A stretch of DNA of 64,000 nt from Candidatus Latescibacterota bacterium (GTDB lineage: Bacteria > Latescibacterota > UBA2968 > UBA8231): assembly GCA_965243025.1 (NCBI GenBank), contig CBDETY010000003.1:5056001-5120000 (forward strand), written 5' to 3'. The first letter of the stretch is position 1. Each line of letters begins with the position of its first letter. The translations under genes and the position numbers were made by a program. The notes beneath the pieces are model-generated. The model saw only the letters and a list, made by a program, of their open reading frames with translations. It was not told the DNA's origin and searched no databases. Below are positions 22,066-54,071 of this stretch, piece after piece.

Positions 22066-22335
22066 CGCAGACCTCCAGGAGGGTTGGTCCAGTCTCTGCT
22101 TGTCCGACTGTGAGTCATCCGGGCAGGCGGTAAAACCCGTCCCGGCCGCTGGCGGAAGACCGACGGCAAGGAGGGGGAAAGCATTGGGCAAACCCGGCCT
22201 TAAGGCTCTTTCTCCGAGAGACTTAGACCGCCTGAGAAAGCACCCGGCCAGCTTTTGATAAATCGGACTTAATCACATTATAAACAATAGGTTAGAATGG
22301 TTTTTCGAGTCGCGGAGAAAGATTCGAATAATTAG

Positions 22336-26052: not shown

Positions 26053-26110
26053 GGGGTTGCACCGGCACGCGGCGGCGTTCGCTCAATGTGGGATTGTCAG
26101 CCTGAAACGC

Positions 26111-38468: not shown

Positions 38469-38548
38469 TCCCGTCGCGCCGAATGCCCGGCCCCTGCCAG
38501 ACATCAGAGAAGGCCGCAGGGCTGTTTGCCCGCGGCGTCCGCCCCCAC

Positions 38549-40678
38549 TCAATAGGCCAGGGCGAACAGGCCGATAACCTCGTCGACCTTCTCGGCCTCG
38601 AGTCTGATCCGGTACAGGTAGGTGCCGGGAGGCGCCAGGGCGCCGCTGGCAGTGCGGCCGTCCCAGGTCTGCCGGTAGGCTCCGCTGGTCGACAGGCCGG
38701 AGCTCAGGGTGGCGACAGGCCTGCCGGAAAGGTCGAAGATTTCCAGCAGGACCTCTCGGGCGTCGGTCACTTCCCGCAGCTTGTAGTCCACGAAGACCCG
38801 GTCGTTGACGCCGTCGCCGTTGGGGGTGAAGGGGTTGGGGCCGACCGTCACGTCGGCGAGCAGGTCGCCGCCGATCGGCGAGCGCACCGACAGGTCGTCC
38901 CCGGAGAACCGGAAGGTGGCGTTGCCCGCCTCGATGCGCTGCTTGATGAGGTCGGGATCGGAGCTGTCGTAGACCCAGCCGGTGAACTGGGTTCCGAAGC
39001 GGAGAACCGGGGCGTCGAAAACGACCTCGATCTGCTTGAAACTGCTGTCGGGATCGGCCACCCGGAAGGGGAATGCGACAACCAGGCGGTCGTCTTCGAC
39101 CACGGGGGGAAACTCGTTGAGATCGACCTCGTAGACGCCGTCGATGGTGACGGACCGCACCTGCTCCGCCCGGGAGTGGGTTATGACTTCCAGGCGGTCG
39201 AACCCGCTGTCCTCCTCGTCGAACCGCGGCTTGATCACGTAGGTGAAGGTTTCCGGGTCGAAGCTTTTTACCTCGACCGGCCAGATTTCACCCACCACCT
39301 CCTGCGCGACAGGCGTCTCGCTGAAGAGGATGGCGACCTGTTCGAGTCGCGGGGCGACCTCGAAGGTGCCGAACATGCGGATATCGAGCTGCAGGTAGCG
39401 CCCGAGTCCCTCGGAAACGACCGGCAGGCCGTCCTCCCAGCTTCCGGCCGGGAGCGAGGAATCGCGGCGTCCGCCCTCGAAGTCGTAGACCGGAGACCAG
39501 AAAGTCCAGTTCTCCGTGTCGTATTCGATCGGCACCTGATCGAGGAAATTAATGTCTTCGTACACCTCTTTGGTGGTGGGAACGACGTTTCCGTTGGGGT
39601 CCATCTCGAAGTAAAGGCTTGGATCGGGAGTGTTGCCGGTGCGGGTGCGCACCTCAACCCTCGTTCCTTCCGGGAAGTCGCCGCTCCAGCGGATCCTGCC
39701 CCAGTTTACGTGCTTGCCGAAGTCCATGATCTGGGAGACGATGCCGGTCTCGCGGACGTACCCCTCGGGATAGATTTCCAGTTCGGCCACTTCCCAGCTG
39801 TGGGTGGGGTTCGGTTCGAACAGGAGCCAGCGCACCGAACGGGTGGGAAACTGCAGGTCGACGACCGTGTCGATGTTCTCCTCGGTGCTGTAGAGGACGT
39901 CGAACCGCCTGTCTCCGCGTTCGGGCCAGTTCGGATGCTTGGAATGAGTGCCGTGGGGATTGCGGTCGCACGGCCCCTTGACGAAGATGCCGACCGAGTT
40001 GTCGGCGACGCGGATGGTGAATCCGTTGAGAAAGTTCTCCGCGTAGCTTTCGACGTTGAAGGATTCGAGGGGGATGGGGGGATCGGCAAGCGACTCGATC
40101 AGGCGCGCGTCGTCGCGCTGACCGAGGCGAGGATAGAAACGGATCCGCGAGAGGGGAACGGGAACGCCCAGATCGAGTATGGCGATACCCTTGTACCCGG
40201 ATGCGCTCCGGAATCTGGCGTTGTAGATGATCTTGTAGAAGGTGGCCGTCTTGGGATCGCCGTCGAACGACGGCTTGTAGTTCTGTATGGTGCCCGCGTG
40301 CACGCAGCTGGTGGCGACCTGCACCCGGCCTCCGACCAGGGGCAGGGGTACGTCCGTTACTCCCGTGGTCGGGTCGGTGACCGCAACGTTGACGCTGCCG
40401 TCGAAGAACCAGGGCTCGATGGTGTTGGCCCGGGTGTCGATCCCGTCGCCGCCGGCCTGGCCGAACGGTGTTATTCCCACCGTCTCCCGGCGCTCGATGT
40501 CTCCCCCGCTGCCGAGAATGAAGTACTCTCCCGCCTCGGCCGGGCTCGTCGCCGCTTCCCAGGGATTCCCGTCCTCCCCGCCGAGGCGGTATTCGGTGCG
40601 GGCCAGGGCATCGGCGGCACCCCAGAAGACAACTGCTGCGACCGCCATGTTTCCGATTGGTGTGAACAGGTCGTTCAC
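38549..40678 (-). CDS. Large secreted hypothetical protein, discoidin-like region + FlgD/CHU_C-type tail (paralog A)
   Basis: GTG 40678 with GGAGG RBS; signal peptide; FDGD, LDLG..RIRFYPR, EVRTRTG, WTFWSPVY, RYLQ, PNPFTPNGDGVND; ends LAY*. Confidence 0.8.
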   Translation of the reverse strand: MNDLFTPIGNMAVAAVVFWGAADALARTEYRLGGEDGNPWEAATSPAEAGEYFILGSGGDIERRETVGITPFGQAGGDGIDTRANTIEPWFFDGSVNVAVTDPTTGVTDVPLPLVGGRVQVATSCVHAGTIQNYKPSFDGDPKTATFYKIIYNARFRSASGYKGIAILDLGVPVPLSRIRFYPRLGQRDDARLIESLADPPIPLESFNVESYAENFLNGFTIRVADNSVGIFVKGPCDRNPHGTHSKHPNWPERGDRRFDVLYSTEENIDTVVDLQFPTRSVRWLLFEPNPTHSWEVAELEIYPEGYVRETGIVSQIMDFGKHVNWGRIRWSGDFPEGTRVEVRTRTGNTPDPSLYFEMDPNGNVVPTTKEVYEDINFLDQVPIEYDTENWTFWSPVYDFEGGRRDSSLPAGSWEDGLPVVSEGLGRYLQLDIRMFGTFEVAPRLEQVAILFSETPVAQEVVGEIWPVEVKSFDPETFTYVIKPRFDEEDSGFDRLEVITHSRAEQVRSVTIDGVYEVDLNEFPPVVEDDRLVVAFPFRVADPDSSFKQIEVVFDAPVLRFGTQFTGWVYDSSDPDLIKQRIEAGNATFRFSGDDLSVRSPIGGDLLADVTVGPNPFTPNGDGVNDRVFVDYKLREVTDAREVLLEIFDLSGRPVATLSSGLSTSGAYRQTWDGRTASGALAPPGTYLYRIRLEAEKVDEVIGLFALAY

Positions 40679-40949
40679 TTCCGGCCTCCCTCGGCTGCCG
40701 TGTAGCAATTAAGGGGACGTCGCGGTTCCCATTAAGAAACTCAATACCGCGGGGGGGGACAATCCTGTTTTCCATCCGCCCGGGGCCGGATTTGAAACCT
40801 GATACAGTATGCCGTTTTCAACTCTTCAACAGCCGGCCAGAATCTCATTGAGCAGGCGGATGGCTATCGATATCTTCAGGCCCTTGGCGATCGAAGGCAA
40901 TGACATGACATCGACAGTGCGGGACGGAAGCCACACCGACAACAGGTTC

Positions 40950-42599
40950 ATGAACCGCATCCCGTTTTGGGCCGGGATCGTCTGGTTGCAGGTGATGTCC
41001 TGCGGGCACCCGGACAGGGACGTCGTCGCGGAGGTCGGGAGGTATCGCGTCGAGGCCGGCGCCCTGCGAAACCTGGTCGCCGACCTGCTGCCGGGGCAGC
41101 GGGCAAATGCCGCCGGCGACGAAGCGCGCCGCCACTACCTGCAGGTGATGGTCGACGGACGCCTGATGCTTCTCGAAGCGGAAAACCAGGCTCTGGAATC
41201 CCTGGAGGAAGTGCAGGCGGAGATCCGCGAAGCCGTAGACAAGCAGGTTCGCCGGTTGTATCTGACAGCGGAGATTCCTTCAGTACCCCCGGTCACCGAG
41301 GCGGACGCCAGGGCCCGGTTCGAGCAGGAGGGGTTCGGCCGCGAGCGTCTGTGCAGCGCCGTCCTGGTTGCCGACCGGGCCACCATGGACAGCGTGCTTG
41401 CAGCACTGTCGGGGGGCCGTTCTTTCGAGGAAGTTGCGAGTCGGTACTCACTCGACTCCCGTTCGGCGGCCCAGGGGGGCGAGCTGGGCTACGTCGGCCC
41501 GAGGACGATCGACAGACTCAACCTCCCTCCCGATCTGTTTCGCAGCCTTCCCGCGGGGAAGGTGTCGCCGCCGATCCCCGCCGGAAGGGGCGCCTGGCAG
41601 GTATTCCGCTTCACCGACGAACGCGGCGTTCCGTTCGCCAGGCACCGGACTTTCATAGAGACTCTCCTGCAGACCGAGCGCCGGACCCGGGCCGAACGGC
41701 AACACCTGGAACGCCTGCAGGAATCCTTCGAGGTACGCCTGAATGCGGCAGGCCTCAGGGAACTGATCGAGGCCTACGGCCGCCGGCAGACCGGGGATCT
41801 GCCCGCCAGCACCACCGCCCTTTACCTCCACGACGAAGGAGCAATCGGCGTTGCCGAGGCGAACGAAGCCCTGCGGGCCGGGAATCTTCGCCGCGCCTTC
41901 GCTGACAGCGCCGACGCGGCGGCGACGTTCAACGGGGCGGTTCTGCGCCCTTACCTGATACGGCGGGCGGCGCGAGGGGCCGGCTACTACGACAGGCCCG
42001 ACATCGCCGAGTACCGGGAACGGGTCCGCATCAACGTTCTCGCCGGCCGGCTCAGGGCCCTCGCCATGGAGGAGATCGAGCTGTCGGAGGCGGACATCCG
42101 CGCCTACTACGATGCCAACCCCGGGATGTTCCGCATAGAACCCTACACCTCGGTCGAAGAGCTGTTGCTGCCCAGTGTGGCAGAGGCCGCCGGGTGCAAG
42201 CAAGAACTGCTGGACGGGGAGCCTTTCGAGAACCTCGTTTCCCGCAGCACGAGGTCCGACGCCGTCGAAAACGAGGGCCGATACCACTTCCACCCCCGGG
42301 ACGCCCTGGTTTATCCCCTCCTGATGGCCGCCATCGACCAGGCCTCCGCGGGGAAGTGGACCGGACCGGTGCAGGTGGAGGAAGGATACTCCGTCTTCCG
42401 TGTTTCCGAGCGGATACCCGAAGGGGTGAAGCCGTACGAGCGGGCCCGGAACAAGGCCCGCCAACTGCTGCTGCGGGAGCGGGAGGCGAAGGAGCTCGAC
42501 AGGTTGGTAAACAGCCTGCGCGAAAAATACGAGGCCGAAGTCGTCGTCCACGAAGGGAATCTCAGGGGCGCCCTGCCGGACAGCCTCCTGGCGGGTTGA
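40950..42599 (+). CDS. Parvulin/PpiC-type peptidyl-prolyl isomerase-like chaperone with two rotamase domains, probable lipoprotein
   Basis: Lipobox-like VMS-C; SurA-like N domain; FEEVASRYSLD..SAAQGGELGY; second domain IRAYYDANP...FENL...GPVQVEEGYSVFRV. Confidence 0.82.
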   Translation: MNRIPFWAGIVWLQVMSCGHPDRDVVAEVGRYRVEAGALRNLVADLLPGQRANAAGDEARRHYLQVMVDGRLMLLEAENQALESLEEVQAEIREAVDKQVRRLYLTAEIPSVPPVTEADARARFEQEGFGRERLCSAVLVADRATMDSVLAALSGGRSFEEVASRYSLDSRSAAQGGELGYVGPRTIDRLNLPPDLFRSLPAGKVSPPIPAGRGAWQVFRFTDERGVPFARHRTFIETLLQTERRTRAERQHLERLQESFEVRLNAAGLRELIEAYGRRQTGDLPASTTALYLHDEGAIGVAEANEALRAGNLRRAFADSADAAATFNGAVLRPYLIRRAARGAGYYDRPDIAEYRERVRINVLAGRLRALAMEEIELSEADIRAYYDANPGMFRIEPYTSVEELLLPSVAEAAGCKQELLDGEPFENLVSRSTRSDAVENEGRYHFHPRDALVYPLLMAAIDQASAGKWTGPVQVEEGYSVFRVSERIPEGVKPYERARNKARQLLLREREAKELDRLVNSLREKYEAEVVVHEGNLRGALPDSLLAG

Positions 42600-42620
42600 C
42601 GCTCCAGGTGGTGGATACTC

Positions 42621-45600
42621 ATGAAACGACATGACGGAATGCATCCCCGCATGCTCCTCGCGGGTCTCTGCAGCCTGGCGGTGCTCGCAGCTGCCCGGCA
42701 CGCCCCGGCTCAGGTGGAGACCCGGGGGGCGGAGGTCAGCAACGAGTTGATCAGCGTCAACAGCGCCTCCCACTGGGAGAACTGGTCGATTCCAACGCAC
42801 GCGGTCGACATCGTCGGCGACGCGGTCGTTCCGCACTACTTCCGAATGCGCTTCAACGTGCTGGAGGATTTCCGCACCTACCGGAGATCGATCGACGAGC
42901 TGACCTGGCCGGTCGACGACAAGTTCAGGGTCCACGGGGGGGTCGGGGCCTTCACGGCGGTGCCCAACGTGCAGCGCACCTTCTCCCTGGACGCCAACGG
43001 CGAAATGAAGCTGCGCAACGACCTCAACATGGAGAAGTATCTCGACGCAAACTTCCTCAAGTATCCGGGCAACGAGGCCCACCTCGTTATCGACGGGGTG
43101 CTCTTCGTCCTCGAGGACACGACGATGACCGCTGCCAAGGAAGGGGTCCTCACCTTGAGGAACGCCCGAACGGGCAGGACTTCGAGGATGGATTTCCAGA
43201 CCAAGGACAAGCTTCCCTTCCCCATCTACGAGTACTCCGTTCGCCAGGGGGTCAGCCGGCTCGGCTCCGGCAGCGTCGACCAGGGGGCCCTGTTCGACGG
43301 CGATCCCGGTACCTACTGGGAGCCGGACGCGAACGATCCCCTCGAGAAATGGTGGATCGAGATCGACCTGGGGAGGACGGTGCTCGTCGACGAGATCGTC
43401 CTGAAGTTCGCAGATGCCGGGAACGGAGATCCGTTTCGCCAGTTCAAGGTGCTCACCGAGCCCGGCCAGCAGCTGATTCTCGAAGAGGCAGGCGAGCTGG
43501 AATTCGCTGTCGTGGCGGGAACCGACGCCCCCAACGAAGACCAGCGGACCTTCAGTTTCGGGATGGAGGACACGCGGGACGCCGCTCCCGGCTGGGACGG
43601 CCGCATGGTCGAGACCATCCGCATCGTCGTCTTCGACACCAAGGGGTCCCGTCACACCAGGCTGGGATCCGAGGCCGAATGGCAGGACCTCGACCCGGCC
43701 GACCGCGGCGACATCGTCCATTTCGTCAGGGATCAGGGCGGCTTCGAGGAACCGGTCTCCCGGGAGGAGTACGACCAGCTGCCCGGCCAGCGGCAGGGCC
43801 GCAGGGATTTCTACCGGCGCGAGCGGCCCCGCCTGTCAGAAGTCGAGGTCTGGGGCCTGGGGGACAACATCGGCCCGGGAATCAAGCAGGGCGGCGGCAG
43901 CTTCGACGTCATCGGCGAAGGGGTCAGCTCCCCCATCGACGCCTTCGACGGGGACTACAACACCTATTTCTCGCAGCAGCTGCCGACCCCGACCCTGGCG
44001 CAGCGCGGCCTCATGGTCGCCGACCTCGGGGCGACCTTCTGGCTCGATCAGCTGCGCATCTCGGCGGTCTGGATCCGCAGCTACACCACGGTCTTCGACG
44101 GCTACATCCACCGCGGCTCCGACGGCACCAGTGACGCGCGCGGGCGGCTGAAATGGACGCGTCTCAGCTCCGCGGAGCGGGAGAAGAACCAGGCTCCCCA
44201 GTACCTGCAGATAAAGGACGAGTACCCCGAAGCCCCGAGAATCCGCTTCCTGGAGACACGCATCGTCAGCGAAAGGGATGCCTTCCGCACCTCCAGCGAG
44301 GGGGCGGGCATCGTCGAGTACCAGCTGTACACCCGGGCTTACCCGGCCGAAGTCGTCCTCGAGTCGGATCTGTTCGCCCTGCCGGGAACCCGCAACCTCG
44401 GCCGCATCTTCTGGGACGCCGACACTCCCCCGGGAACCGGCATAGAGGTGCGGACCCGCAGCGGCGATCTGCTCGGCAAGGTGGTCCGCTACTTCGACGA
44501 CGCCGGCAAGGAGATCAGCCTGACGGCCTGGAAGAGTCTGCGGCGGCCGCCTCCCCCGGACACCGTTTTCGTGCCGACTTCCGGCTGGAGTCCCTGGAGC
44601 AACGTCTACCAGGGATCCGGGGACCGCGTCACCTCTCCCGGCCTGCGCAAATACCTGCAGGCCCAGGTCGTGCTCACCACCGACGAGCGCGAGGCGGCTG
44701 CGCGCATCCGCTCGCTGGAGATAGAGCTGGTAGCTCCCGTCGGGGAACGCATCCTCGCGGAGGTCTGGCCCAGCGAGGTTCCCGATCCCGGGGTGGTCGA
44801 CACCTTCGAGGTGTACATACGGCCCAACTTCATCGAGGACCCGGCCCCGTCGCGAAGCCTGGGGTTCGACGAGATCCTGCTCGAGCTGGGCAGCGGCGGC
44901 ATCGAGCTTCTCGAGCTCGCGGTCGGCGCGGATCCGGCCTCCGGGACCGCGGATCAGACTTTCAGGCCGGTCGATGGAGTTTTCTCGGACCAGGAGGGAG
45001 CCGGCCTCGAGGTGCTGCGCAACGGCGCCGATTCGATCTGGGTGCGGTTTCCCGAACTGCAGACGAGCCGCGACGATGCCGAACCGGTTTACCATCGCAT
45101 CACCTCTGAAGGGGACGAGGTTCCGGTCGATCAGAACGGCGTCATGCTGACGGCTGCGGCCTATGGCCTGCTGAGCGGCGAAGAGCAGGGCGCCGTGCAG
45201 TACTTCCGTCTGGAGGCCGATGGCGGGCTGGCGGAAGTCGACCACCCCGACTACGCCGAACTCGATCCCTCCGAGCAGGGCCCGGTTCGCTACTTCCGGG
45301 TTCTGCAGGGAGACGGCTCGCAGTTTCCGTTTTCAGCGGGAGGCGACACCCTGACCTCGGCGGGCTACAGCAGTCTCGGAAGGGCCGAGCGGGGATCGGT
45401 CGTCGCCGAGGGCAACCTCATGCGCGTTACTTTCGCCGCCCCGGTGTACCGAAACGGCACGACCCTGGTGCTCGCCGCCCGCAACAGCGGGGGCGGCGCC
45501 GATCCGGAGGCGCCCTGGCAGACGATCGAGGCCGGCGACGCGACCCCGGCGTTCGACGGCAACACCTTGTCGATCGGCGTGCCCCTGGGTCTGGCGGCGC

Positions 45601-45920
45601 TCTCCGAGGTGGAGATAAGCCCGAATCCGTTTACCCCCAACGGCGACGGCATCAACGACGCAGCCCGGATCGGCCTTTCGGTCTTCAAGATAACCGCCGG
45701 CAGAGAGCTCGGGGTAAGCATCCACTCTCTCGACGGACGTCGCGTCTGGGAGGCGAAGCAGGTGGTATCCGGCGGAGCGCACACGATTCAATGGTCCGGG
45801 GTGGACAATGCCGGGAAGTCCGTGCCCCCGGGAATGTACATCTGCCGCATCGAGCTCGACGTCGATTCGAAGGACCGGGGAGAGGCCGCGGTGGCCCGCC
45901 TCATTTCGGTTGCCTATTGA
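42621..45920 (+). CDS. Large secreted hypothetical protein, two discoidin-like regions + FlgD/CHU_C-type tail (paralog B)
   Basis: Signal peptide; LFDGDPGTYW...IEIDLG, AFDGDYNTYF...DLG, EVRTRSG, WSPWSNVY, KYLQ, PNPFTPNGDGIND; ends VAY*. Confidence 0.82.
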   Translation: MKRHDGMHPRMLLAGLCSLAVLAAARHAPAQVETRGAEVSNELISVNSASHWENWSIPTHAVDIVGDAVVPHYFRMRFNVLEDFRTYRRSIDELTWPVDDKFRVHGGVGAFTAVPNVQRTFSLDANGEMKLRNDLNMEKYLDANFLKYPGNEAHLVIDGVLFVLEDTTMTAAKEGVLTLRNARTGRTSRMDFQTKDKLPFPIYEYSVRQGVSRLGSGSVDQGALFDGDPGTYWEPDANDPLEKWWIEIDLGRTVLVDEIVLKFADAGNGDPFRQFKVLTEPGQQLILEEAGELEFAVVAGTDAPNEDQRTFSFGMEDTRDAAPGWDGRMVETIRIVVFDTKGSRHTRLGSEAEWQDLDPADRGDIVHFVRDQGGFEEPVSREEYDQLPGQRQGRRDFYRRERPRLSEVEVWGLGDNIGPGIKQGGGSFDVIGEGVSSPIDAFDGDYNTYFSQQLPTPTLAQRGLMVADLGATFWLDQLRISAVWIRSYTTVFDGYIHRGSDGTSDARGRLKWTRLSSAEREKNQAPQYLQIKDEYPEAPRIRFLETRIVSERDAFRTSSEGAGIVEYQLYTRAYPAEVVLESDLFALPGTRNLGRIFWDADTPPGTGIEVRTRSGDLLGKVVRYFDDAGKEISLTAWKSLRRPPPPDTVFVPTSGWSPWSNVYQGSGDRVTSPGLRKYLQAQVVLTTDEREAAARIRSLEIELVAPVGERILAEVWPSEVPDPGVVDTFEVYIRPNFIEDPAPSRSLGFDEILLELGSGGIELLELAVGADPASGTADQTFRPVDGVFSDQEGAGLEVLRNGADSIWVRFPELQTSRDDAEPVYHRITSEGDEVPVDQNGVMLTAAAYGLLSGEEQGAVQYFRLEADGGLAEVDHPDYAELDPSEQGPVRYFRVLQGDGSQFPFSAGGDTLTSAGYSSLGRAERGSVVAEGNLMRVTFAAPVYRNGTTLVLAARNSGGGADPEAPWQTIEAGDATPAFDGNTLSIGVPLGLAALSEVEISPNPFTPNGDGINDAARIGLSVFKITAGRELGVSIHSLDGRRVWEAKQVVSGGAHTIQWSGVDNAGKSVPPGMYICRIELDVDSKDRGEAAVARLISVAY

Positions 45921-45946
45921 GAGATCTCAACATCTGGGAGGGTGTC

Positions 45947-48640
45947 GTGAGAATAATCGGACGACCAGCAGCAACCATCCTCGTCGCCGCGGCGCTGGCA
46001 GCGACAACCTCGTCTGCCGCCGCCCAGGAGTACGGGTCACGGCTGGGCAACGTTCGGCGGGGAGGCGAAGTCTCATTCGATCCGCGCGGCCCCGGGGTCC
46101 TGTTCGGAGCCCTCGACCCGGCGATGAAGAAGTGGTACGTGTCCCAGGAGCTGTATGCCGAGTACGCCTGGAAACAGTGGGAATACTCGAACTACGCCCG
46201 CAGGCACTTCGCCCGTTATGTCGATATCGCCCTGGAAGGGGACTATTACTACGACCTCTACGGGAACTTCGTCACTCACGGCTGGCTCATCTTCAACAAT
46301 TCGCAGAGCCAGCCCCAGCAGTTCGGCAGCTCGGTGCTCAAGGCCAACCGTTTCGACGGGTGGTTCAGCGGGGCGGTGATTTCCGCGGACGCCAAGGGGC
46401 AGTACCAGTACGCGCTGACGATCAGCAACCAGCTGCGGACGACGCTGACCCCGATGACCTTCTCCAAACCCAGGTGGGACGGGGTCCAGTTCGACTGGGC
46501 TTCCGACAAGTACATGGGAACGGTCGTCTATTCGCGCATCAGCTCCCCGGGAGGCAGCTCGACGCTCGACCTGGAACGGCTGGCAACGAACGCCACCTCC
46601 CTGTTCGGCGGCCGGGTGGAAGGCCAGGTCGGCGATTTCGCCACCGTCGGCCTCACCTACGTGAACTCGCACCAGTCAAACACCCTGCGCGACGGTTTCA
46701 GCGGCGACCCCTTCTCCGGGGAGCTGACCATCGATCAGAACAAAACCGTCAGCTTCATCGAGATCGTGCTGCGCGACGACTCTCCCGAGGACGGCAAGGG
46801 AGGGGCGGCCTACTTTCCGGCCGGCTCGGACATCATCATCACCTACTCCGGGCGGGACGCGGAGGGCAGGAAGCTCCGGGACGAAGGCCAGAAGATCCGC
46901 TTCGAACCGATTGTGGAGGGCGGGTTCATCGAAGAGGGATACCTCGCCGCCGACGGCGCCGAGGAGATCCGCCTTCGCTACGACTTCAACAACCCCGATT
47001 TCGTCAATCGTTCGAGCGCCCCGAAGGAGGAGATCGAAAAGGTCGAATTCCGCCTGGTTCTGGGGAACGACTACCAGATCTGGATCACCTCCAGCCAGCA
47101 GGTTAGCCAGTCCGGGGACGCGGTTCTGCTGCCCGTAACCCGGGCCGAGGGCAACGTGCAGGACAACACCAACCTGCGCGTGGTCAGCTTCGAATACGGC
47201 CTGCCGACGGCGACGCAGATTCTCGGGGGGACTCTGGAGCTGTCGGACGTGGCGGGTTTCGACGTCTTCGCCGAGTACGACCTGAGCTACTCCTTCACGA
47301 AGTATCCCAATATCGCCAGCGAAAGCCACTCTACCTCCTCGGGCTTCAAAGGGGCGCGGGCGGCGCCGGCTTGGATGATCAACGCCTCGCGGAGCAACTA
47401 TCCCTGGTTCCTGTTCGGGGAGGTTTACAGCATGAACCCGCGCTACAACACCCGAACGTTCGCCACCTCCACGGATGGCTTCATCGGTTACGACGACACC
47501 CGGTTGTACGCGGTGGAGCTGGTCGAAGACAACGACGACCAGGATCGCTTCCCCGATACGAGACGCAGGGACTCTCTGGCGGGGGACCGCGAGGTGTTTC
47601 CTGGATGGGACGAAAACAACGACTTCATTTCCGACTTCAACCAGAACGACAACGCGGTGATAACCAACTCGGTACCGGACTACGAGGAGTCGTTCCTGCG
47701 GCACAACGTCGACCGTCCGGAGTTCCTCTTCGGTATCGATCTCAACAACAACCTGTGGGTCGACCGTTTCGAGAACGACGAGGATCCGGATTACCCCTAC
47801 CGCAAGGATCACGAAGGGTTCAACCTCTACGCCGGGACGCACCTTACCCCCGACACCCGCTTGACTGCAGGCCTCCTGCGCGAAGACCTGATCTCCTCCG
47901 ACCAGAAAAACCACGTCGACTACCTGATGTTCACCCTGGACCGCGACATTCCCGTCTGGGGGCGTTTCAGGGTTTTCGACATGCTCAAGTCGGTGAGGGA
48001 CGACATACCCAACGACCTCCTGCAGTGGCTGCCGAACGCCAACCTGAAAACCGGGGAAGGGACCTCCATCGTCGATCCCCTGGTGGCCCCCGACACTTGG
48101 ACCAACAGTTTCTGGGCCGGTCACGACTATCGGATCGCCGGGTTGTCGACGAGCAACTACCTGAAGTGGGATTACTACAACCAGCGCAAGGACGAGGTGG
48201 AGCTCGACCTCCTGGGGCTGAGGGCGAAGGATTACTTCTTCGGCCTGATCAACAAGGCCAGCTACCGGTTCGACCTCGGCGTCCTCTGGTTCGAGCCGAG
48301 GTGGAAGAGCGAATACCGGCGGCAAACCCTGGGTCTTGCGACATCCAACCGGGAGAAAAGGGTGGAGCTGGCGCAGGTCGGCGGGCTCATCGCCGGGCTT
48401 TCACTGCTGACGCATACCTTCGTTCAGGGGGGGATCGAGTTCACCTTCCTCAACGACTTCGAGGGTGACGCCGATATGAACGGCACCGCCACCGCCCTGC
48501 AGCTGACCAACATCTCCGACTACCTGGGTTACAAGCTCACTACCCAGGCAGGCATCAAGATCGACTACCTCGACCGCAAGGGGCGCGACCCCACGACGCT
48601 GGCCAAGAGCTTCATCACCGTGTACGCCGGCCTGGAGTAG
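45947..48640 (+). CDS. Hypothetical large exported protein, probable outer-membrane beta-barrel with Asp-rich Ca-binding loops
   Basis: GTG 45947 with GGAGG RBS; signal peptide (AAA-Q); many amphipathic strands ending FITVYAGLE; DNDDQDRFPD, DENNDFISD, DLNNNLWVD motifs. Confidence 0.72.
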   Translation: MRIIGRPAATILVAAALAATTSSAAAQEYGSRLGNVRRGGEVSFDPRGPGVLFGALDPAMKKWYVSQELYAEYAWKQWEYSNYARRHFARYVDIALEGDYYYDLYGNFVTHGWLIFNNSQSQPQQFGSSVLKANRFDGWFSGAVISADAKGQYQYALTISNQLRTTLTPMTFSKPRWDGVQFDWASDKYMGTVVYSRISSPGGSSTLDLERLATNATSLFGGRVEGQVGDFATVGLTYVNSHQSNTLRDGFSGDPFSGELTIDQNKTVSFIEIVLRDDSPEDGKGGAAYFPAGSDIIITYSGRDAEGRKLRDEGQKIRFEPIVEGGFIEEGYLAADGAEEIRLRYDFNNPDFVNRSSAPKEEIEKVEFRLVLGNDYQIWITSSQQVSQSGDAVLLPVTRAEGNVQDNTNLRVVSFEYGLPTATQILGGTLELSDVAGFDVFAEYDLSYSFTKYPNIASESHSTSSGFKGARAAPAWMINASRSNYPWFLFGEVYSMNPRYNTRTFATSTDGFIGYDDTRLYAVELVEDNDDQDRFPDTRRRDSLAGDREVFPGWDENNDFISDFNQNDNAVITNSVPDYEESFLRHNVDRPEFLFGIDLNNNLWVDRFENDEDPDYPYRKDHEGFNLYAGTHLTPDTRLTAGLLREDLISSDQKNHVDYLMFTLDRDIPVWGRFRVFDMLKSVRDDIPNDLLQWLPNANLKTGEGTSIVDPLVAPDTWTNSFWAGHDYRIAGLSTSNYLKWDYYNQRKDEVELDLLGLRAKDYFFGLINKASYRFDLGVLWFEPRWKSEYRRQTLGLATSNREKRVELAQVGGLIAGLSLLTHTFVQGGIEFTFLNDFEGDADMNGTATALQLTNISDYLGYKLTTQAGIKIDYLDRKGRDPTTLAKSFITVYAGLE

Positions 48641-48650
48641 CGGGTGCTGC

Positions 48651-50654
48651 TTGCCTGAAGTCACCGTCGGCTCGCAGGAGGCTGTTTCCAGGCGGCCGGG
48701 GATTTTCGGGAAGTTGCTGCCGCGGGTGGTGGAATCCCCCCTCCACGGCATGCTCCTGGTTCTGGCGCTGGCAGCGGCGGTGCGCGTCGTCCACCTGCAC
48801 CAGGCGAGCTCGGACCCGCTGTTCGATTACCCGGTCGGGGCGGCCCGTTCGTACGCCGCCGCCGCAGGAACGGCCCCCCATGTCGGCGAATCTGCCACCG
48901 CTCGGGCGCCGGCGGGGCCCTTGATCGAAGTTTCTCCCTACGCCCGTTTCTACGCCTTCTCCCTCGCTGCAACCGGCGGCGACCATACCCCGGTTCTGAT
49001 TGCCAACCACGCCGCCGGCGTCGCCGCCTGCCTGCTGGTCTACGGCATCGCCTCGGCCCTGTTCACCCCGCCGGTCGCCCTGGCCGCCGGCCTCGGCGCC
49101 GCTTTCCACGGGCCGCTCATCCATTTCGGGGCCGAGCTGACGCCCGTCGCCTGGGTCGCTTTCCTGGTCCTGTTGCTCGCGTACGCGATGGTCCGGCCGG
49201 ACCGGACCGGGGTGCGCATGGCAGCCGCAGCGGCGCTTGCCTTCATCGTGCTGACAGAAGCCGTTGCCTGGCAGGCACCGCAGATTCCCGACTCTCCGGG
49301 GCGGTTCCTCACCAACATCTTCTACCTGCTGCAAGGGGTGGAACTGCTGCCGGACCTCGATCCCTACCGGGACGGGACCGGTGCCGCGTCGGTGCTTCTC
49401 TGGCACCGGGGACTGGCTTTCCCGATGGGGGTGGTCATGCCCCTCGGCGCGATCGGTCTTCTCGGCTGTGTGCGCTCGCAACACCGCGCCGGGGAGATGT
49501 CCGGCATTGTTGTGCTCCTGGGACTGCACCTGCTGGCGCTGGCCGCGCTCGCCCCCGATGGGCGGCATCGACTGCCCCTGGCCCTGCTCCTGCTTCCGTT
49601 TGCCGCCTGGGCACTGCTGCGGGGGTTCCCCGCCCCCGGCCGTCGCTGGCGGGCGCTCCTGTTCCTGGTCCTCCTTCTGGCGGCCAACGCCGGTCTGGCG
49701 GCTCCTTCCCACTTGGGCGGGAAGCGGCAGCACGACTACTGGACCGGAGTGGCCTATGCGGAAAAACGGATGTATTCCCATGCCAGGGAGGCTTTCGACC
49801 GGATCCTCGCGAGGGAGCCGAGCCATGGGGGCGCCCTTCTTGCCAGCGCCCGCCTCGCCAGGCGTGACGGACAGATCGACCGCGCCTTGCTGCTGTACGA
49901 CGCCTTTCTCAAGGAAAATCCCGGCCCTTCCGAGATCCTTTACGAGATGGGAAAAACCTTTGCCGCCGCGGACCGGTTCGACGAGGCCGTCGGCGTTTTC
50001 GAAAGAGCCCGAGCCGCTGGTGATTCATCCATTTTCCTCCTCGGCGCCCTGGGCCACGCCCGTTACATGGGGGGCGATACCGACGGAGCCGCCGCCGCCT
50101 ACCTCGCCGCCGTTCAGGCCAAGCCCGATTCGATTGCTCTCAGGTACCGCCTGGCCCATGCGTACGAAGCAGGGCAGCGGATCGATCGAGCGATCGAGCA
50201 GTATCGTCTGCTTCTGGAAGGGAGCCCCGCAAGGGCCGAGTTCCACGCTCGGCTGGGGGAGTTGCTCCTGTTCAGGGAGGAGTCGCGCGAAGGGTCGATC
50301 TACCTGGAGCGGAATGAAACCACCAGCGAGGCGGAGGAGCACCTTCGCGCCGCGGTTTCCCTGCAGCCAGAACTGGAACCCGCCCACCGTTCCCTGGCGA
50401 TGCTGCTGTCGAAGCAGAGACGCTACGATGAGGCGATCGCCCAGTTCGAGCGTTTGCGCGAGTTGAACCCGAACGAACCGGAGCTGCAGCGGCTTATCGC
50501 CAACCTGCATGAGCGGGCAGGAAATCCCGGCGAGGCCTCCCGGCAGTTCGACCTCTTCAGACGGATGCACAGAGAGATGGAGATCCAGAGGAGGGCCGAG
50601 GAAAAAGCGCGGGAGCTCGCCGGTGAGATATGGGCAAAGCCAACCTCGCCATAA
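48651..50654 (+). CDS. Membrane protein with GT-C (PMT/ArnT)-like N-terminal domain and C-terminal TPR array
   Basis: Several TM helices followed by about 7-8 TPR-like repeats; start uncertain (TTG 48651 or a later ATG). Confidence 0.72.
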   Translation: MPEVTVGSQEAVSRRPGIFGKLLPRVVESPLHGMLLVLALAAAVRVVHLHQASSDPLFDYPVGAARSYAAAAGTAPHVGESATARAPAGPLIEVSPYARFYAFSLAATGGDHTPVLIANHAAGVAACLLVYGIASALFTPPVALAAGLGAAFHGPLIHFGAELTPVAWVAFLVLLLAYAMVRPDRTGVRMAAAAALAFIVLTEAVAWQAPQIPDSPGRFLTNIFYLLQGVELLPDLDPYRDGTGAASVLLWHRGLAFPMGVVMPLGAIGLLGCVRSQHRAGEMSGIVVLLGLHLLALAALAPDGRHRLPLALLLLPFAAWALLRGFPAPGRRWRALLFLVLLLAANAGLAAPSHLGGKRQHDYWTGVAYAEKRMYSHAREAFDRILAREPSHGGALLASARLARRDGQIDRALLLYDAFLKENPGPSEILYEMGKTFAAADRFDEAVGVFERARAAGDSSIFLLGALGHARYMGGDTDGAAAAYLAAVQAKPDSIALRYRLAHAYEAGQRIDRAIEQYRLLLEGSPARAEFHARLGELLLFREESREGSIYLERNETTSEAEEHLRAAVSLQPELEPAHRSLAMLLSKQRRYDEAIAQFERLRELNPNEPELQRLIANLHERAGNPGEASRQFDLFRRMHREMEIQRRAEEKARELAGEIWAKPTSP

Positions 50655-50829
50655 GCACCGAACTGTCTGAATCCCACCGACTTGGACGAATTGGGCGGCA
50701 GCGGGTCAGGGGGAAATTCCCTTGACTTCCCAGTGCTGTTGCCACTCTTTATTAACCTTCGGTCGCGGGGATTCGCGGACGCGACATTCTTTCGCTGGTA
50801 CTCTCACCGTATCCAAGGAGGATCGCAGA

Positions 50830-51711
50830 GTGCAAAAATTCACTATCGCAGCCATAGCGGGCCTGGTTGTCGTTGGACTGGTCGGCATGGCAGGAGCGCA
50901 CAAACCGGAAGGGGAGAAGTATTTCGCCTTTCAGTTCGAAGACGGAGCGGTGCCGGTGATCGACGGGGATCTGTCCGACTGGGCTTTCGTCCCCGACTTC
51001 TACCGGATCACTCAGGACAAGCTGTTTTCGCCGAACAAGGGGATTCGCGACGTCGGCCGCGGCGAATTCGATCCGAGCGATGTCTTCAACACGCACACCT
51101 TCGGCTTCAACCCCAACGACGAGTTCCTCTACGTCTCGACCTCGCAGTACGACAACTACCACAACGCCGACCGCGAAGCGCCGAACTCGCTGTGGACGGA
51201 CGATGACTGGGAGGTCCGCATCAACCCCACCGCCCTTCCCGAAGACCAGCACAACCTCGAAGGTGAGCCGGTCAATTACATCATCTATGTTCACGCGGTT
51301 CCCGCGGTTCAGGATGTGTACGAGGTCATTCTTCCGGGACCGGATTTCCTGCTGGACGGCAACGGCCACCTGGAGTTCGGCTGGAGCTGGGAGGGCGAGA
51401 TGCTGGACGGGGAAACGACCTATTTCCTCGAGATGAAGCTCAACCCCGTGGTCGCTCTCGGAGAAACCGAGGGAGAAACCGTATGGATGGATATCGAGGA
51501 GGGTGACGAAATCCACATGAACGTCACTCATGCCGACCTCGATGCTCCTCACCCGGCGACTTACAACGGTTTCTGGGCGATTTCCCCCGGTCCTTCGAAC
51601 AATCCGGAGGTCGATCTGGTCATGGACGAGATCGACGACAGTGTCGACCAGATGGCAACCGCCGTCGAAGAAACGAGCTGGGGCCTGATCAAGGAGGGGC
51701 TTTCCAAGTAG
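50830..51711 (+). CDS. Secreted acidic hypothetical protein (CBM9-like fold) with C-terminal TAVEETSWGLIK tail
   Basis: AAGGAGG RBS, GTG start; signal peptide (AGA-H); PVIDGDLSDW motif typical of CBM9/DOMON-like domains. Confidence 0.78.
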   Translation: MQKFTIAAIAGLVVVGLVGMAGAHKPEGEKYFAFQFEDGAVPVIDGDLSDWAFVPDFYRITQDKLFSPNKGIRDVGRGEFDPSDVFNTHTFGFNPNDEFLYVSTSQYDNYHNADREAPNSLWTDDDWEVRINPTALPEDQHNLEGEPVNYIIYVHAVPAVQDVYEVILPGPDFLLDGNGHLEFGWSWEGEMLDGETTYFLEMKLNPVVALGETEGETVWMDIEEGDEIHMNVTHADLDAPHPATYNGFWAISPGPSNNPEVDLVMDEIDDSVDQMATAVEETSWGLIKEGLSK

Positions 51712-51770
51712 CAGCAGAGACCCATCTCCCGCACGGCGCGGGAACGTCTCCTGAGGCAGAAAGGGTTTCG

Positions 51771-51813
51771 AGCCCCCGGGTGTCGCACCTGACCCCGGGG
51801 GCTTTCTGTTTTT
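51771..51813 (+). terminator. Intrinsic terminator between convergent genes
   Basis: 10-bp stem AGCCCCCGGG/CCCGGGGGCT followed by TTCTGTTTTT. Confidence 0.8.
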
Positions 51814-51869
51814 GTGGGGCGACGGGCAGGCGGGAGCTGTCGGCCGGGACTTCGGGCGCGCCCCCGCTT

Positions 51870-53993
51870 TCAGTACGTCAGGGAAACCACCCGGGACAAC
51901 CGGCCCTCTTCGGCATCCCCCGACACTTCGATCCTCACCAGGTACAGCCCCGGCGGCAGCAGGGAACCGGACAGGCCGCGTCCATCCCAGGAAATGTCAC
52001 TGTAGTTCCCGCTGACCTGCTCGGCGTCGCCGATGACGGCGACGGTGCGTCCGCTGAGATCGTGGACCTTTATCGAAACCGGCGTCGGAGCGGTTACGGC
52101 CAGCAGATTGTAGAGGACTTCCAGGCGGTCGTTGACGCCGTCCCCGTTGGGAGAAAACGGGTTCGGCTGCATCACGACTTCGTCGAGGAGGCGGGAGCTC
52201 GTGAGGACCTCGGGGCTCACCACCGCGGTGCCGGATTCGTCGTCGTCGTCCCCTTCCCCGAGAAACGCGGTGTTTCCGGGGGTGAGGGCCTGGAAGGCAT
52301 CCTCCCCTGTGGAAAGTCGAACCGCGCCCCCGAAATTGGTGCTGTAGGTCAGAACCTGGGATTTGAAACGCACCACCACCCGGGTGTGGTTGTCGCGGAC
52401 GTGGGGGAACCGCAGGGAAAAGCCGTCGTCGGCGACCTCGAGGATCTGGTACCCGTCGACGCTCGAAGTATCGTCCAGGCCGGTGAATTGCCGGCCGCCC
52501 AGGAGCTCGTCGTCGGCGCTGCGCAGTTCGATGGCGTCGATGCTCTCCGCGCGGGCGGGCGTGGATATCTCGATGGTGTCGAATCCGGTCAGGCCCGAGG
52601 ACTTGATTACCGCCAGGACGGAATAGATGAAGTCGATGGTCCGTGAGACATCCACCTCGCGGGGGAATATCTCGGCGTTTACGGAGTCGGCCAGGGGCGG
52701 AGAGGCGAAATCGATGCTCAGGGTTTTCAGGATCCGCGTGGCGCTGAGATCGGTGCTGTGAAAGGTGGCCTCGAACTGGAAATACCGCCGCGGGCTGGGG
52801 GAGATCGCCGGAGTTCCCGGGCCATTGGCCGCCGATTCCGGGTAGGGAGAGCTGAACGGGCTCCAGTTGACGAGGTCGTCGAGGATGTTTCCCCGCTCCC
52901 ACTGCCGGCCCTCGTCGTCGGTAGGCGGCAGGTTCTCGTACCCTTCGAGATCCATCTCCACGGTGGTGCTGTTGATGGCGAACGGGATTTCCTCCGCATC
53001 CGATATGCCGTTGAGCTTGCGGGTAAAGACGAACGGGGAGTCGTCGGTGCCTGTGCGGGTGCGAATTTCCAGGGAGGAGTCCCCGGGTTTGCCGACGATC
53101 TCCTCCGTCCAGCGCAGATCGGTCCAGGCGACCGGTTCCCCGGCGTCGAAAATGTCGGACAGGTAATGTCCGGTGGCGAAGAACCCCTCGCCGTAGATCT
53201 CGAGTTCATCGATCTCCCAGTTGATCGACGTCTTCGACTGCAGGCGGATGTGCCGCAGGACCTGCGGGGGATCGATGTCGATTTCGACCACCGGGCCGGG
53301 ATTGTCGCGTTCGGAGACCAGTTCCCTCCACACCGGGTTTCCCTCGTCGGTCAGTTGCAGCCCGTCGTTGACCAGCAGGTCGAACGCCCGCAGGTAGTCG
53401 TCCTCGAAGGGGGTCGTAGGCGAGGGCTGTACCGTGTTGCGGGGATAGAACCGTATCTTGTTCAAACCGATGCGGCTTCCGAGGTCGAGGACGATGATGA
53501 TCCCGAAGACCCCGTTGGGGATGTTCTTGCGCTCGAAAGCCTCGAGCTCGCCCCCCTCGTCGGCCTGGTCGAGCAACTCTGGAAGGATGAAGTTCTGCAG
53601 CTTGTTGCGGTCCAACCCGCCGGCGAAGCCGAAGCCCTCGGTTTCGCTGAACACGTTGGGGGCGTTGATATAGCCGCCCCGGGAGAGAGCGGTGGAGGCG
53701 ACGTTCTCCCCGGGGACCACCTCCAGCAGGTGCATGCTTCCGGGGACGCGCTCGCTGTCGACCTCGAGCAGGTTTCCGGGGATGTTGCCCTGCACCAGGT
53801 CGTTGGGATCGTCCCGGGACCGTGTGAGCGCGGGCAGGATGGCCTCCACCGGCGCGGTACCCTGCCCGCGCCAGGTGAGATTTCCCTCCTCGCCGATCAC
53901 AATCGTTCGCACCTCCGCGGCAAGGGGAGAAGTGGCCACGAGTAGACCGATCAACGGTGCCGTCAGCCGGCAGCAGTCGCGTGCCCGTATCAT
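51870..53993 (-). CDS. Large secreted hypothetical protein, discoidin-like region + FlgD/CHU_C-type tail (paralog C)
   Basis: Signal peptide; LDLG..KIRFYPR, WEIDELEIYG, EIRTRTG, WSPFSSPY, RYFQ, PNPFSPNGDGVND; ends LTY*. Confidence 0.8.
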   Translation of the reverse strand: MIRARDCCRLTAPLIGLLVATSPLAAEVRTIVIGEEGNLTWRGQGTAPVEAILPALTRSRDDPNDLVQGNIPGNLLEVDSERVPGSMHLLEVVPGENVASTALSRGGYINAPNVFSETEGFGFAGGLDRNKLQNFILPELLDQADEGGELEAFERKNIPNGVFGIIIVLDLGSRIGLNKIRFYPRNTVQPSPTTPFEDDYLRAFDLLVNDGLQLTDEGNPVWRELVSERDNPGPVVEIDIDPPQVLRHIRLQSKTSINWEIDELEIYGEGFFATGHYLSDIFDAGEPVAWTDLRWTEEIVGKPGDSSLEIRTRTGTDDSPFVFTRKLNGISDAEEIPFAINSTTVEMDLEGYENLPPTDDEGRQWERGNILDDLVNWSPFSSPYPESAANGPGTPAISPSPRRYFQFEATFHSTDLSATRILKTLSIDFASPPLADSVNAEIFPREVDVSRTIDFIYSVLAVIKSSGLTGFDTIEISTPARAESIDAIELRSADDELLGGRQFTGLDDTSSVDGYQILEVADDGFSLRFPHVRDNHTRVVVRFKSQVLTYSTNFGGAVRLSTGEDAFQALTPGNTAFLGEGDDDDESGTAVVSPEVLTSSRLLDEVVMQPNPFSPNGDGVNDRLEVLYNLLAVTAPTPVSIKVHDLSGRTVAVIGDAEQVSGNYSDISWDGRGLSGSLLPPGLYLVRIEVSGDAEEGRLSRVVSLTY

Positions 53994-54030: not shown

Positions 54031-54060
54031 ATGTTACACCCGTCCCCGAGCGATTGTCAA
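54031..54060 (-). promoter_or_regulatory. Sigma70-type promoter of paralog C
   Basis: Minus strand TTGACA (54060-55), 18-bp spacer, TAACAT (54036-31). Confidence 0.6.
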
Positions 54061-54071
54061 GGATCATTCCC

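Follow-up and report, generated by a model that had tools for sequence, protein, structure and literature searches.

Tyrosine-ended T9SS-type cargo beside an unnamed family of predicted giant outer-membrane barrels in a multicopy locus of Candidatus Latescibacterota

How do bacteria outside the Bacteroidota hold surface proteins that carry the C-terminal domain (CTD) of the secretion system known as type IX (T9SS), a system whose biology is known almost wholly from Bacteroidota? The question is raised by a locus at positions 38549-53993 of the 64,000-nucleotide stretch of DNA analysed here (the window; G000:C3:5056001-5120000, G+C 65%), part of the 6.8-Mb, three-contig genome of a Candidatus Latescibacterota bacterium. 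In this locus three related genes for CTD-bearing proteins (paralogs A, B and C) accompany a gene for a predicted outer-membrane beta-barrel of 897 residues. The first-pass annotation, made from the sequence letters, had proposed an undescribed system of cell-surface assembly or uptake. We found that the locus is the best conserved among the copies of a module that has at least 22 barrel-bearing loci in this genome, and that adjacency of cargo and barrel genes is the rule across the phylum. The module is probably a new way of holding proteins at the cell surface, and perhaps serves the capture of food. All seven genes of the locus are real, being the best-scoring coding frames at the coordinates that had been claimed for them; they are listed here with the evidence for each in brackets.

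38549..40678, minus strand: paralog A, 709 aa (CHU_C, FlgD_ig, fold model, orthologs)
40809..42599, plus strand: SurA/PpiD-like parvulin peptidyl-prolyl isomerase (PPIase) with two rotamase domains (Pfam PF13145, PF00639)
42621..45920, plus strand: paralog B, 1099 aa, directly upstream of the barrel (F5_F8_type_C, CHU_C, BLASTP)
45947..48640, plus strand: predicted giant outer-membrane beta-barrel of an unnamed family, 897 aa (structure model)
48651..50654, plus strand: TM/TPR protein, with a polytopic transmembrane (TM) N-terminal half and C-terminal tetratricopeptide repeats (TPR) (Pfam TPR families)
50830..51711, plus strand: small exported protein, similar to carbohydrate-binding module (CBM) family 9, from a 12-member family with a C-terminal tag (CBM9_1 in a paralog, tag)
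51870..53993, minus strand: paralog C, 707 aa, with the architecture of A (BLASTP, FlgD_ig, motifs)

The cargo paralogs, the barrel and their companions

The tightly spaced plus-strand run noted earlier is confirmed by the coordinates, with gaps of 21 bp between the PPIase and B genes, 26 bp between B and the barrel and 10 bp between the barrel and the TM/TPR gene. That A, B and C are divergent paralogs was borne out by BLASTP in every pair: A and C align at 30% identity over 588 columns (E 6e-52), A and B in the tail (E 5e-26) and the middle (E 6e-15), and C and B at E 2e-19 and 2e-8. The seven motifs they had been said to share appear in the same order in all three, once each except for DLG (twice in B), and the C-termini LAY (A), VAY (B) and LTY (C) agree with the description of the paralogs as Tyr-terminated. 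Each is a chain of beta-sandwich domains ending in a T9SS-type CTD. Paralog A, whose start at 40678 is backed by homologs and whose full-length orthologs are 43-94% identical, has a signal-like N-terminus, followed by a domain like those of CBM32 and F5/8 type C (~92-307), further beta-sandwiches and a Tyr-ended, type-B-like CTD (604-709). Its structure model, built on 57 sequences, is confident (pLDDT 88.7, pTM 0.76); A is the sole paralog modelled. In fold comparisons (VIA), residues 92-307 matched the CBM32 structure 4a42_B (Z 13.4, root-mean-square deviation (rmsd) 2.4, 123 of 126 residues aligned), and residues 604-709 matched the retained CTDs of PorU (6za2_B; Z 12.9, rmsd 2.6, 99 residues aligned, 22% identity) and PorZ (5m11_A; Z 11.2). 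The region between these two domains resembles stalks of the fibronectin type III or immunoglobulin (Ig) type, and a SusE-like protein, 7m1a, was among the fold matches (Z 10.3).

The T9SS character of the tails, proposed in the first-pass annotation, also holds at the level of families. In Pfam, CHU_C scored 38 bits in A and 29 bits in B, both over the cut-off of 27, and 25 bits, under it, in C; FlgD_ig was found at all three C-termini, with 36.8 bits in A and 23.5 bits in C. In NCBIfam, TIGR04131 reached 29.4 bits in A, under its cut-off of 35, and B and C had no match to it. A F5_F8_type_C domain was found in B (PF00754, 34.7 bits, cut-off 28.2); in C the Pfam scan found no F5_F8_type_C/CBM32 domain, and its fold was not compared. 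CBM32-type sugar-binding domains are carried by A, as judged by fold, and by B, as judged by hidden Markov model (HMM), with sugar binding itself being predicted. The genome holds two CTD classes: 84 of the 87 genes of the A/B/C family end in Y or F; of the 64 remaining CTD genes, 52 have R or K as their last residue and 60 show the type-A tail motif (NPFN type). In 23 orthologs of B that lie directly upstream of barrel orthologs, the last residue is Y in 22 and F in one.

The protein at 45947, whose start is backed by homologs (897 aa, 100% coverage), had been described as a Ca-binding barrel. No Pfam family (E up to 10, the limit for all Pfam negatives given for this protein), no NCBIfam family (E up to 0.01) and no sequence relative in the PDB (profile search, E up to 10) was found for it. 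Its structure model is of middling confidence (pLDDT 68.4, pTM 0.68) and shows long antiparallel strand pairs, with ~24-26 long strands (hand count from DSSP of the model) outside a beta-sandwich inserted at ~270-400. Segments 18-99 and 529-609 are unmodelled yet highly conserved in the alignment; the conserved N-terminal region comprises ~75 residues, and an invariant Asp/Asn-rich loop region spans ~528-617. For the calcium part of the description we found this Asp/Asn-rich stretch and no match to a calcium-binding family, and the barrel part is upheld by the model. The structural matches listed are all beta-barrel membrane proteins, bacterial outer-membrane or mitochondrial, among them MtrB, SlpA, LptD, FimD/PapC, TonB-dependent receptors and porins. 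Foldseek returned MtrB (6r2q_B, E 2.9e-10), FimD (E ~1e-6), SlpA and LptD with TM-scores of 0.16-0.27, and VIA reached Z scores of up to 10.4, including PapC (2vqi_A; Z 10.0, rmsd 6.2, 311 residues aligned), LptD (Z 8.3-9.0) and chains of SusC and BtuB (Z 7.7-9.1); matches to chains of TonB-dependent transporters (Z 7-9, rmsd 7-10) were no better than those to other barrels. The best of these matches are barrels of 24 to 30 strands. Because the similarity of fold is generic, the model supports a large outer-membrane barrel and does not support membership of a known barrel family.

The tests of single families agree with this. The barrel is not a PorP/SprF protein, as PF11751 and TIGR03519 are unmatched and its 897 residues stand against ~300 residues and 14 strands in these FadL-type barrels; the signature of a TonB-dependent transporter or SusC was not found, neither Plug (PF07715) nor TonB_dep_Rec matching; and no protein of the locus matched Usher or PapD in Pfam, the PapC fold match being generic. 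DUF6029, its nearest named cluster in the Atlas (0.88), was taken as a lead only and set aside when the Pfam scan did not bear it out. The family itself is of moderate size, with 948 clusters (E up to 0.001) in a set of 1.84 billion representatives, and unusually conserved: orthologs are 53-80% identical (best 120 clusters), and mean column identity is 65% in the barrel alignment. A complex prediction of barrel residues 27-897 with the B CTD (985-1099) gave no answer (0.00 and 0.01 against a mark of 0.32, controls not folded) and speaks neither for nor against their binding.

Among the companions, the PPIase scored 81 bits for PF13145 (cut-off 27) and 49 bits for PF00639 (cut-off 21.7), which identifies it as a parvulin rotamase; every score against the PPIase models of NCBIfam was under cut-off, and no equivalog subtype was reached. 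A later start at 40950 would give it, by eye, a lipoprotein-like N-terminus. The first-pass annotation had stated that all components are exported or membrane proteins and that none shows a recognisable catalytic site; hydrophobic N-termini, judged by eye, agree with the former, and the rotamase domains of the PPIase contradict the latter. The TM/TPR protein matched TPR_14 (84 bits) and other TPR families in its C-terminal part, and its N-terminal half (~350 aa) has no family and no usable PDB match; a glycosyltransferase identity for this half was dropped, as neither PMT_2 (E 0.48) nor one PDB match (E 0.87) was usable. The small protein carries SWGLIK 11 residues before its end, as had been reported, and has no Pfam match at E up to 10. 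Its paralog at C3:3509767-3510687 matched CBM9_1 (PF06452, 32.9 bits, cut-off 23.4), and CBM9_1 occurs in 13%, 37% and 94% of the members of its look-alike clusters in the Atlas. All 12 members of its family have the C-terminal sequence TAVEExSWGxIK plus ~5 residues, and SWGxIK looks like an undescribed C-terminal tag or sorting signal. In the genome as a whole, SWGx(I/V/L)K lies within the last 40 residues of 56 called proteins, including all 12 of this family (sites include 51670-51711 of the window, C3:494935-505965 and C3:2836379-2839219), many of them 310-350 aa long, in tandem arrays and without a Pfam family. NCBIfam gave nothing usable for the small protein, for the SWGxIK proteins or for a DUF6785 protein described below.

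Copies in the genome and across the phylum

Counts in the genome are based on 4310 genes from a simple codon-usage caller, which tends to place gene starts too far upstream; the genes were labelled by phmmer with domain-level queries. Searched against its own genome, the barrel gave 54 matches and A gave 161; the called genes comprise 38 barrels, 87 genes with the A/B/C core, 14 PPIase, 12 small-protein and 41 FG-GAP/ASPIC homologs. The families of the module form 46 clusters, 22 of which bear barrels, and by our own gene calls barrels and A/B/C genes together occupy 4.66% of the bases in the genome. Often the order is small protein, B-type gene (~900 aa), A-type gene (~650-750 aa) and one to three barrels, with a PPIase nearby. 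A same-strand CTD gene ends within 700 bp upstream of 18 of the 38 barrel starts, nine further barrels stand in tandem, and 11 show neither arrangement. Against a background of 8.0% for lying within seven genes of a barrel, companion families were frequent there: small-protein homologs (10/12), PPIase homologs (10/14), ExbD homologs (4/5), FG-GAP/ASPIC homologs (19/41) and membrane proteins with DUF6785/DUF6784 (13/49). Sugar-catabolic families were not clearly enriched over the same background (MR_MLE 3/43, GFO_IDH_MocA 3/37, GHL10 3/25). An example of a membrane protein with both DUF6785 and DUF6784 is found at C3:323385-325316.

Two divergent loci with two and three barrels, at C3:6097082-6122000 and 6172000-6191500 (L118-L120), have ExbB-ExbD-ExbD, TPR proteins of 1088 and 1133 residues, DUF4159, DUF5683 and a CBM9_1 protein as neighbours, and a PorV/PorP-like barrel of 299 aa lies inside a divergent barrel locus. 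The three-barrel, motor-linked locus (C3:6097082-6122000), 977 kb downstream, and the window locus belong to a single expanded family: the barrels are of one family, with those of the three-barrel locus on a branch that diverges (28-36% identity); upstream there is an A/B/C-family gene, and CBM9-like and PPIase families are nearby. The difference is that the window locus has no ExbB/ExbD, no TPR proteins of 1088 or 1133 residues and no 299-residue barrel.

The co-occurrence and synteny in other genomes that the idea of one module implies were both upheld. For the public loci one genome per species was scanned, and 331 relatives were found, of which 76 loci were kept; Latescibacterota stands in the titles of 42, Gemmatimonad- in those of 27, and seven bear other names. 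The module belongs to a lineage of the FCB (Fibrobacteres-Chlorobi-Bacteroidetes) group, represented by public metagenome-assembled genomes titled Candidatus Latescibacterota or Gemmatimonadota. Among 97 barrel starts whose upstream sequence reaches 1.5 kb or more, a CTD gene stands directly upstream in 78, the arrangement is tandem in eight, and 11 show neither. In the nine closest loci (L030-L039 minus the short L035) the barrel is 64-68% identical and the order PPIase, B, barrel is kept in 9/9; C is present in 9/9, A in 7/9 and the small protein in 5/9, and the TM half adjoins the barrel in 7/9 (L030-L034, L036 and L037). On the strength of these nine loci, the whole set travels together, in an arrangement that is not always that of the window.

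In a sample of 61 genomes of the phylum, the same in every search, the barrel profile matched 36 and the A profile 35. Both families were found in 34, the barrel alone in two (G003, G044), A/B/C alone in one (G042) and neither in 24, including 16/16 genomes of family f2 and 3/3 of family f3; since kin are not independent, these figures are given as co-occurrence, with no statistical test. CHU_C matches follow the barrels: of the 36 barrel-bearing genomes, 29 have 10-72 each and the other seven 4-7, against 2-8 weak ones in each genome in which no barrel was found (G042 has 15; best E 1e-4 to 1e-6). One related genome has up to 152 first-look barrel candidates. SprA, the T9SS translocon, is near-universal (56/61 genomes, 39/40 of the high-quality ones), so that the module counts as accessory, carried by some of the lineages that have SprA; G015 (96% complete) has barrels and an A/B/C match and no SprA match at E up to 1e-10. 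PorP_SprF matches (E up to 0.001; marginal, 20-28 bits) were found in 14/14 genomes of genus g6, which lacks barrels, and in only 4/36 of the genomes that bear them.

In this genome the search for T9SS genes was successful in part. SprA (TIGR04189) scored 470.4 bits, or 598 bits with its same-frame neighbour (cut-off 200), five genes matched PorV models, and PorU-like genes are present; TIGR03519 PorP, GldL, GldM and GldN had no match, and as all 14 control genomes were silent as well, their absence is not established. The sole gene at PorP_SprF level (C3:3507894-3508829) scored 22.3 bits, equal to the cut-off, and none of the ten window proteins scanned matched PorP_SprF, the neighbour of the cargo being the 897-residue barrel. 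The genome also has 29 Plug-domain receptors, none of which adjoins a barrel locus by its coordinates, and both TonB_C matches lie far from barrel loci. A tandem barrel pair (C3:6649941-6655479) is followed ~5 kb downstream by the SprA gene (C3:6660469-6665319). At C3:3584240-3589151 a PorV-like gene (95.6 bits, under cut-off) adjoins a second PorU-like gene, the same pairing as in Bacteroidota, and a third PorU-like copy is found at C3:6051625-6055329.

The genes around the locus in the window include three further ones that touch on the same subjects.

30297..35825, minus strand: PorU-like C25 peptidase with its own CTD, 1842 aa (Peptidase_C25, 253 bits)
36723..38552, minus strand: Porphyromonas-type peptidyl-arginine deiminase with a type-A T9SS CTD (PAD_porph, 106 bits)
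54054..57026, plus strand: FG-GAP/ASPIC-UnbV protein with C-terminal TPR repeats (FG-GAP_3 148 bits, UnbV_ASPIC 81 bits)

The tail of the deiminase matched TIGR04183 Por_Secre_tail (31.3 bits, cut-off 23). The PorU-like peptidase scored 300.8 bits for the T9SS sortase PorU (NF033707), under its cut-off of 420, and lay under the PorU2 cut-off as well; it has 1842 aa against the 1095 positions of the PorU model, with CARDB and a FlgD_ig tail of its own, and it may be gingipain-like cargo instead of a sortase. A heparinase II/III-like gene (26057-28633) and two GHL10-like genes (20620-22191 and 57134-58606) are also present in the window. Contigs from two RNA libraries (X19, X20; 90-99% likeness) touch 26/30 and 23/30 bins of 38549-53993, a weak hint that orthologous loci are transcribed, given that these libraries may hold DNA and that it is relatives from which the contigs derive. 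DNA runs with sponge and marine metagenome labels share 31-46% of the sampled words of the stretch.

How barrel and cargo might work together

By analogy with Bacteroidota, we favour, at about even odds, the explanation that T9SS cargo with a Tyr-ended, type-B-like CTD docks on its cognate giant barrel, as SprB does on SprF, and so forms glycan-binding complexes at the surface. According to PMC9143113, type-B CTD proteins bind cognate PorP-like barrels encoded alongside them (PG1035-PorP, SprB-SprF); these are 14-stranded, FadL-type barrels of ~300 residues, and Flavobacterium johnsoniae encodes 12 proteins with a type-B CTD and 10 such barrels. A separate CTD class encoded before a dedicated barrel is the logic of type-B CTDs as that source gives it. 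Under this proposal, A, B and C would cross the inner membrane by Sec, be escorted in the periplasm by the parvulin chaperone (which might instead, or also, escort the nascent barrel) and cross the outer membrane through the SprA translocon. Type-A cargo, ended by Arg or Lys, would presumably be handled by PorV and PorU; the A/B/C proteins would retain their CTD and use it to dock on the giant barrel, which would take the part that small PorP/SprF barrels play for the type-B CTD proteins of Bacteroidota. The resulting complex could present CBM32-type domains and, with the small protein, CBM9-type domains for adhesion or glycan capture, and could possibly hand substrate to the barrel lumen. As membership of the PorP family was not found, our claim is that the barrel works like PorP, not that it is one. 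Regarding the dedicated module of barrel and paralogs that had been suggested earlier, the co-occurrence and synteny of the components stand, and a role of the barrel in export, anchoring or import is a proposal.

Several observations weigh against docking. The barrel is no relative of PorP/SprF, has 897 residues against ~300, and its best fold matches greatly exceed 14 strands; anchoring alone would scarcely call for a barrel of such size and conservation, which suggests that the barrel does more than anchor. The 87 cargo genes of the genome outnumber its 38 barrels, and of 80 core-bearing genes 34 have no barrel within seven genes. The small PorV/PorP-like barrels of the genome could serve all the CTDs. 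In three of the four barrel-bearing genomes with a PorP_SprF match, this match adjoins barrel genes, so that the two barrel types may cooperate and not replace each other. Finally, GldL, GldM and GldN were not found in the genome, in searches to which the controls were equally silent.

The main rival, which overlaps with docking and which we regard as possible but doubtful, is uptake in the manner of a utilisome, in which the barrel would be the substrate channel and A, B, C and the CBM9-like proteins would feed it. Such a machine would be analogous in function to SusC with SusD/E/F, with neither a plug barrel of the TonB-dependent kind nor lipoproteins at the surface. It would account for the predicted sugar-binding domains (CBM32-type in A at Z 13.4, F5/8 type C in B, CBM9_1 in the small-protein paralog) and for a multiplicity like that of polysaccharide utilization loci (PULs), with 22 barrel loci on 4.66% of the genome and up to 152 first-look candidates in one relative. 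The size of the barrel falls in the class of channels, with SusC and BtuB among its VIA matches, and the DUF6785/DUF6784 membrane proteins enriched near barrels (13/49) may, should the module import anything, act as its partner in the inner membrane; the GHL10 and heparinase II/III-like genes of the window and the ExbB-ExbD-ExbD genes beside two divergent barrel loci fit as well. However, the barrel has no Plug domain and no family match, the 29 classical Plug receptors stand elsewhere, the TonB_C genes are distant, MR_MLE and GFO_IDH_MocA are not enriched near barrels, and an ortholog identity of 53-80% is more machinery-like than expected of a fast-evolving nutrient receptor. In its boldest form, put forward tentatively, the module would be the lineage's own counterpart of the Bacteroidota utilisome: plug-less giant barrels, served by T9SS-loaded CBM32/CBM9 proteins docked by a Tyr-ended CTD, would import glycans or glycoproteins with dozens of specificities encoded on nearly 5% of the genome, some of the loci being coupled to ExbBD.

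Two other explanations are less likely than docking and uptake. It is improbable that the barrel is a dedicated exporter, translocating the adjoining CTD proteins in usher or two-partner style with the SurA-like PPIase as chaperone and with no need for SprA. The cargo gene directly upstream of the barrel, the chaperone gene in the locus, the usher pores PapC (2vqi_A, Z 10.0) and FimD (E ~1e-6) among the fold matches and the module-bearing, SprA-less G015 would be compatible with it; against it, SprA is present in nearly all the genomes (39/40 at high quality), the tail has both the fold and the HMM signature of a T9SS CTD, the fold matches are generic to large barrels (TM-scores 0.16-0.27), and many of the 87 cargo genes lie far from any of the 38 barrels. 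Likewise, that A, B and C are SprB-like mobile adhesins, held by the barrel and powered by a proton motor, seems quite unlikely: despite the SprB-SprF precedent (PMC9143113), the ExbB-ExbD-ExbD and 1088/1133-residue TPR genes beside two divergent barrel loci, the four of five ExbD homologs near barrels and the title 'gliding motility-associated C-terminal domain-containing protein' of A ortholog records (a domain name only), motor genes occur at only 2 of 22 barrel loci and are absent from the window, GldL, GldM and GldN had no match (with silent controls), and A, B and C are short (650-1100 aa) and CBM-bearing, unlike the giant repetitive SprB.

Comparison with known systems

The claim that the system is undescribed has held so far: nothing in Pfam, NCBIfam, the PDB or the literature searched describes it. 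No description of the module was found in full-text searches of main articles on T9SS, type-B CTDs, Latescibacteria/Latescibacterota, Gemmatimonadota and Fibrobacteres, and neither T9SS nor barrels of this kind came up in look-ups of terms in PMC12993501, PMC4454575 and PMC11316326. New are the expanded multicopy family, the adjacency as a phylum-wide rule and the cargo CTD as a separate, Tyr-ended class.

The best structural matches of the barrel, MtrB, LptD, FimD/PapC and the Deinococcus SlpA, resemble it in fold class and range of size; they differ in that TM-scores are 0.16-0.27, that there is no sequence similarity and that their partner proteins are absent from the locus. With PULs of the SusC/SusD/SusE-F type the module shares its many paralogous loci and a barrel beside Ig-like and CBM-bearing surface proteins, and the SusE-like 7m1a matches A. 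Here, however, a Plug or TonB-dependent receptor signature and a SusD-like TPR lid are both missing, the surface proteins are cargo of the T9SS and not lipoproteins, and catabolic genes are not enriched nearby.

The comparison with SprB-SprF of F. johnsoniae and PG1035-PorP of Porphyromonas gingivalis shows likeness in organisation. In each case the cargo has a CHU_C-type C-terminal beta-sandwich, the barrel gene adjoins the cargo gene, there are several cargo and barrel pairs per genome, a type-A CTD class coexists, and the genome has SprA, PorU-like and PorV-like genes. The differences are that the partner here has 897 residues and no detectable sequence relation to PorP/SprF, that barrels often come in tandem pairs or triplets, that the CTD ends in Tyr, that 38 barrels and 87 cargo genes stand against the 10 and 12 of F. 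johnsoniae, and that the host is outside the Bacteroidota, with GldLMN undetected (in searches where controls were silent too). In this FCB lineage, distinct from the Bacteroidota, T9SS-type cargo is coupled with a barrel family unnamed in any database, at a scale like that of PULs. If the pairing is physical, it would be a second way of retaining type-B cargo at the surface, and would give a function to ~950 protein clusters and to hundreds of genes named 'hypothetical' or 'gliding motility-associated' in uncultured bacteria; if the barrel conducts substrate, it would represent a new class of outer-membrane nutrient importer.

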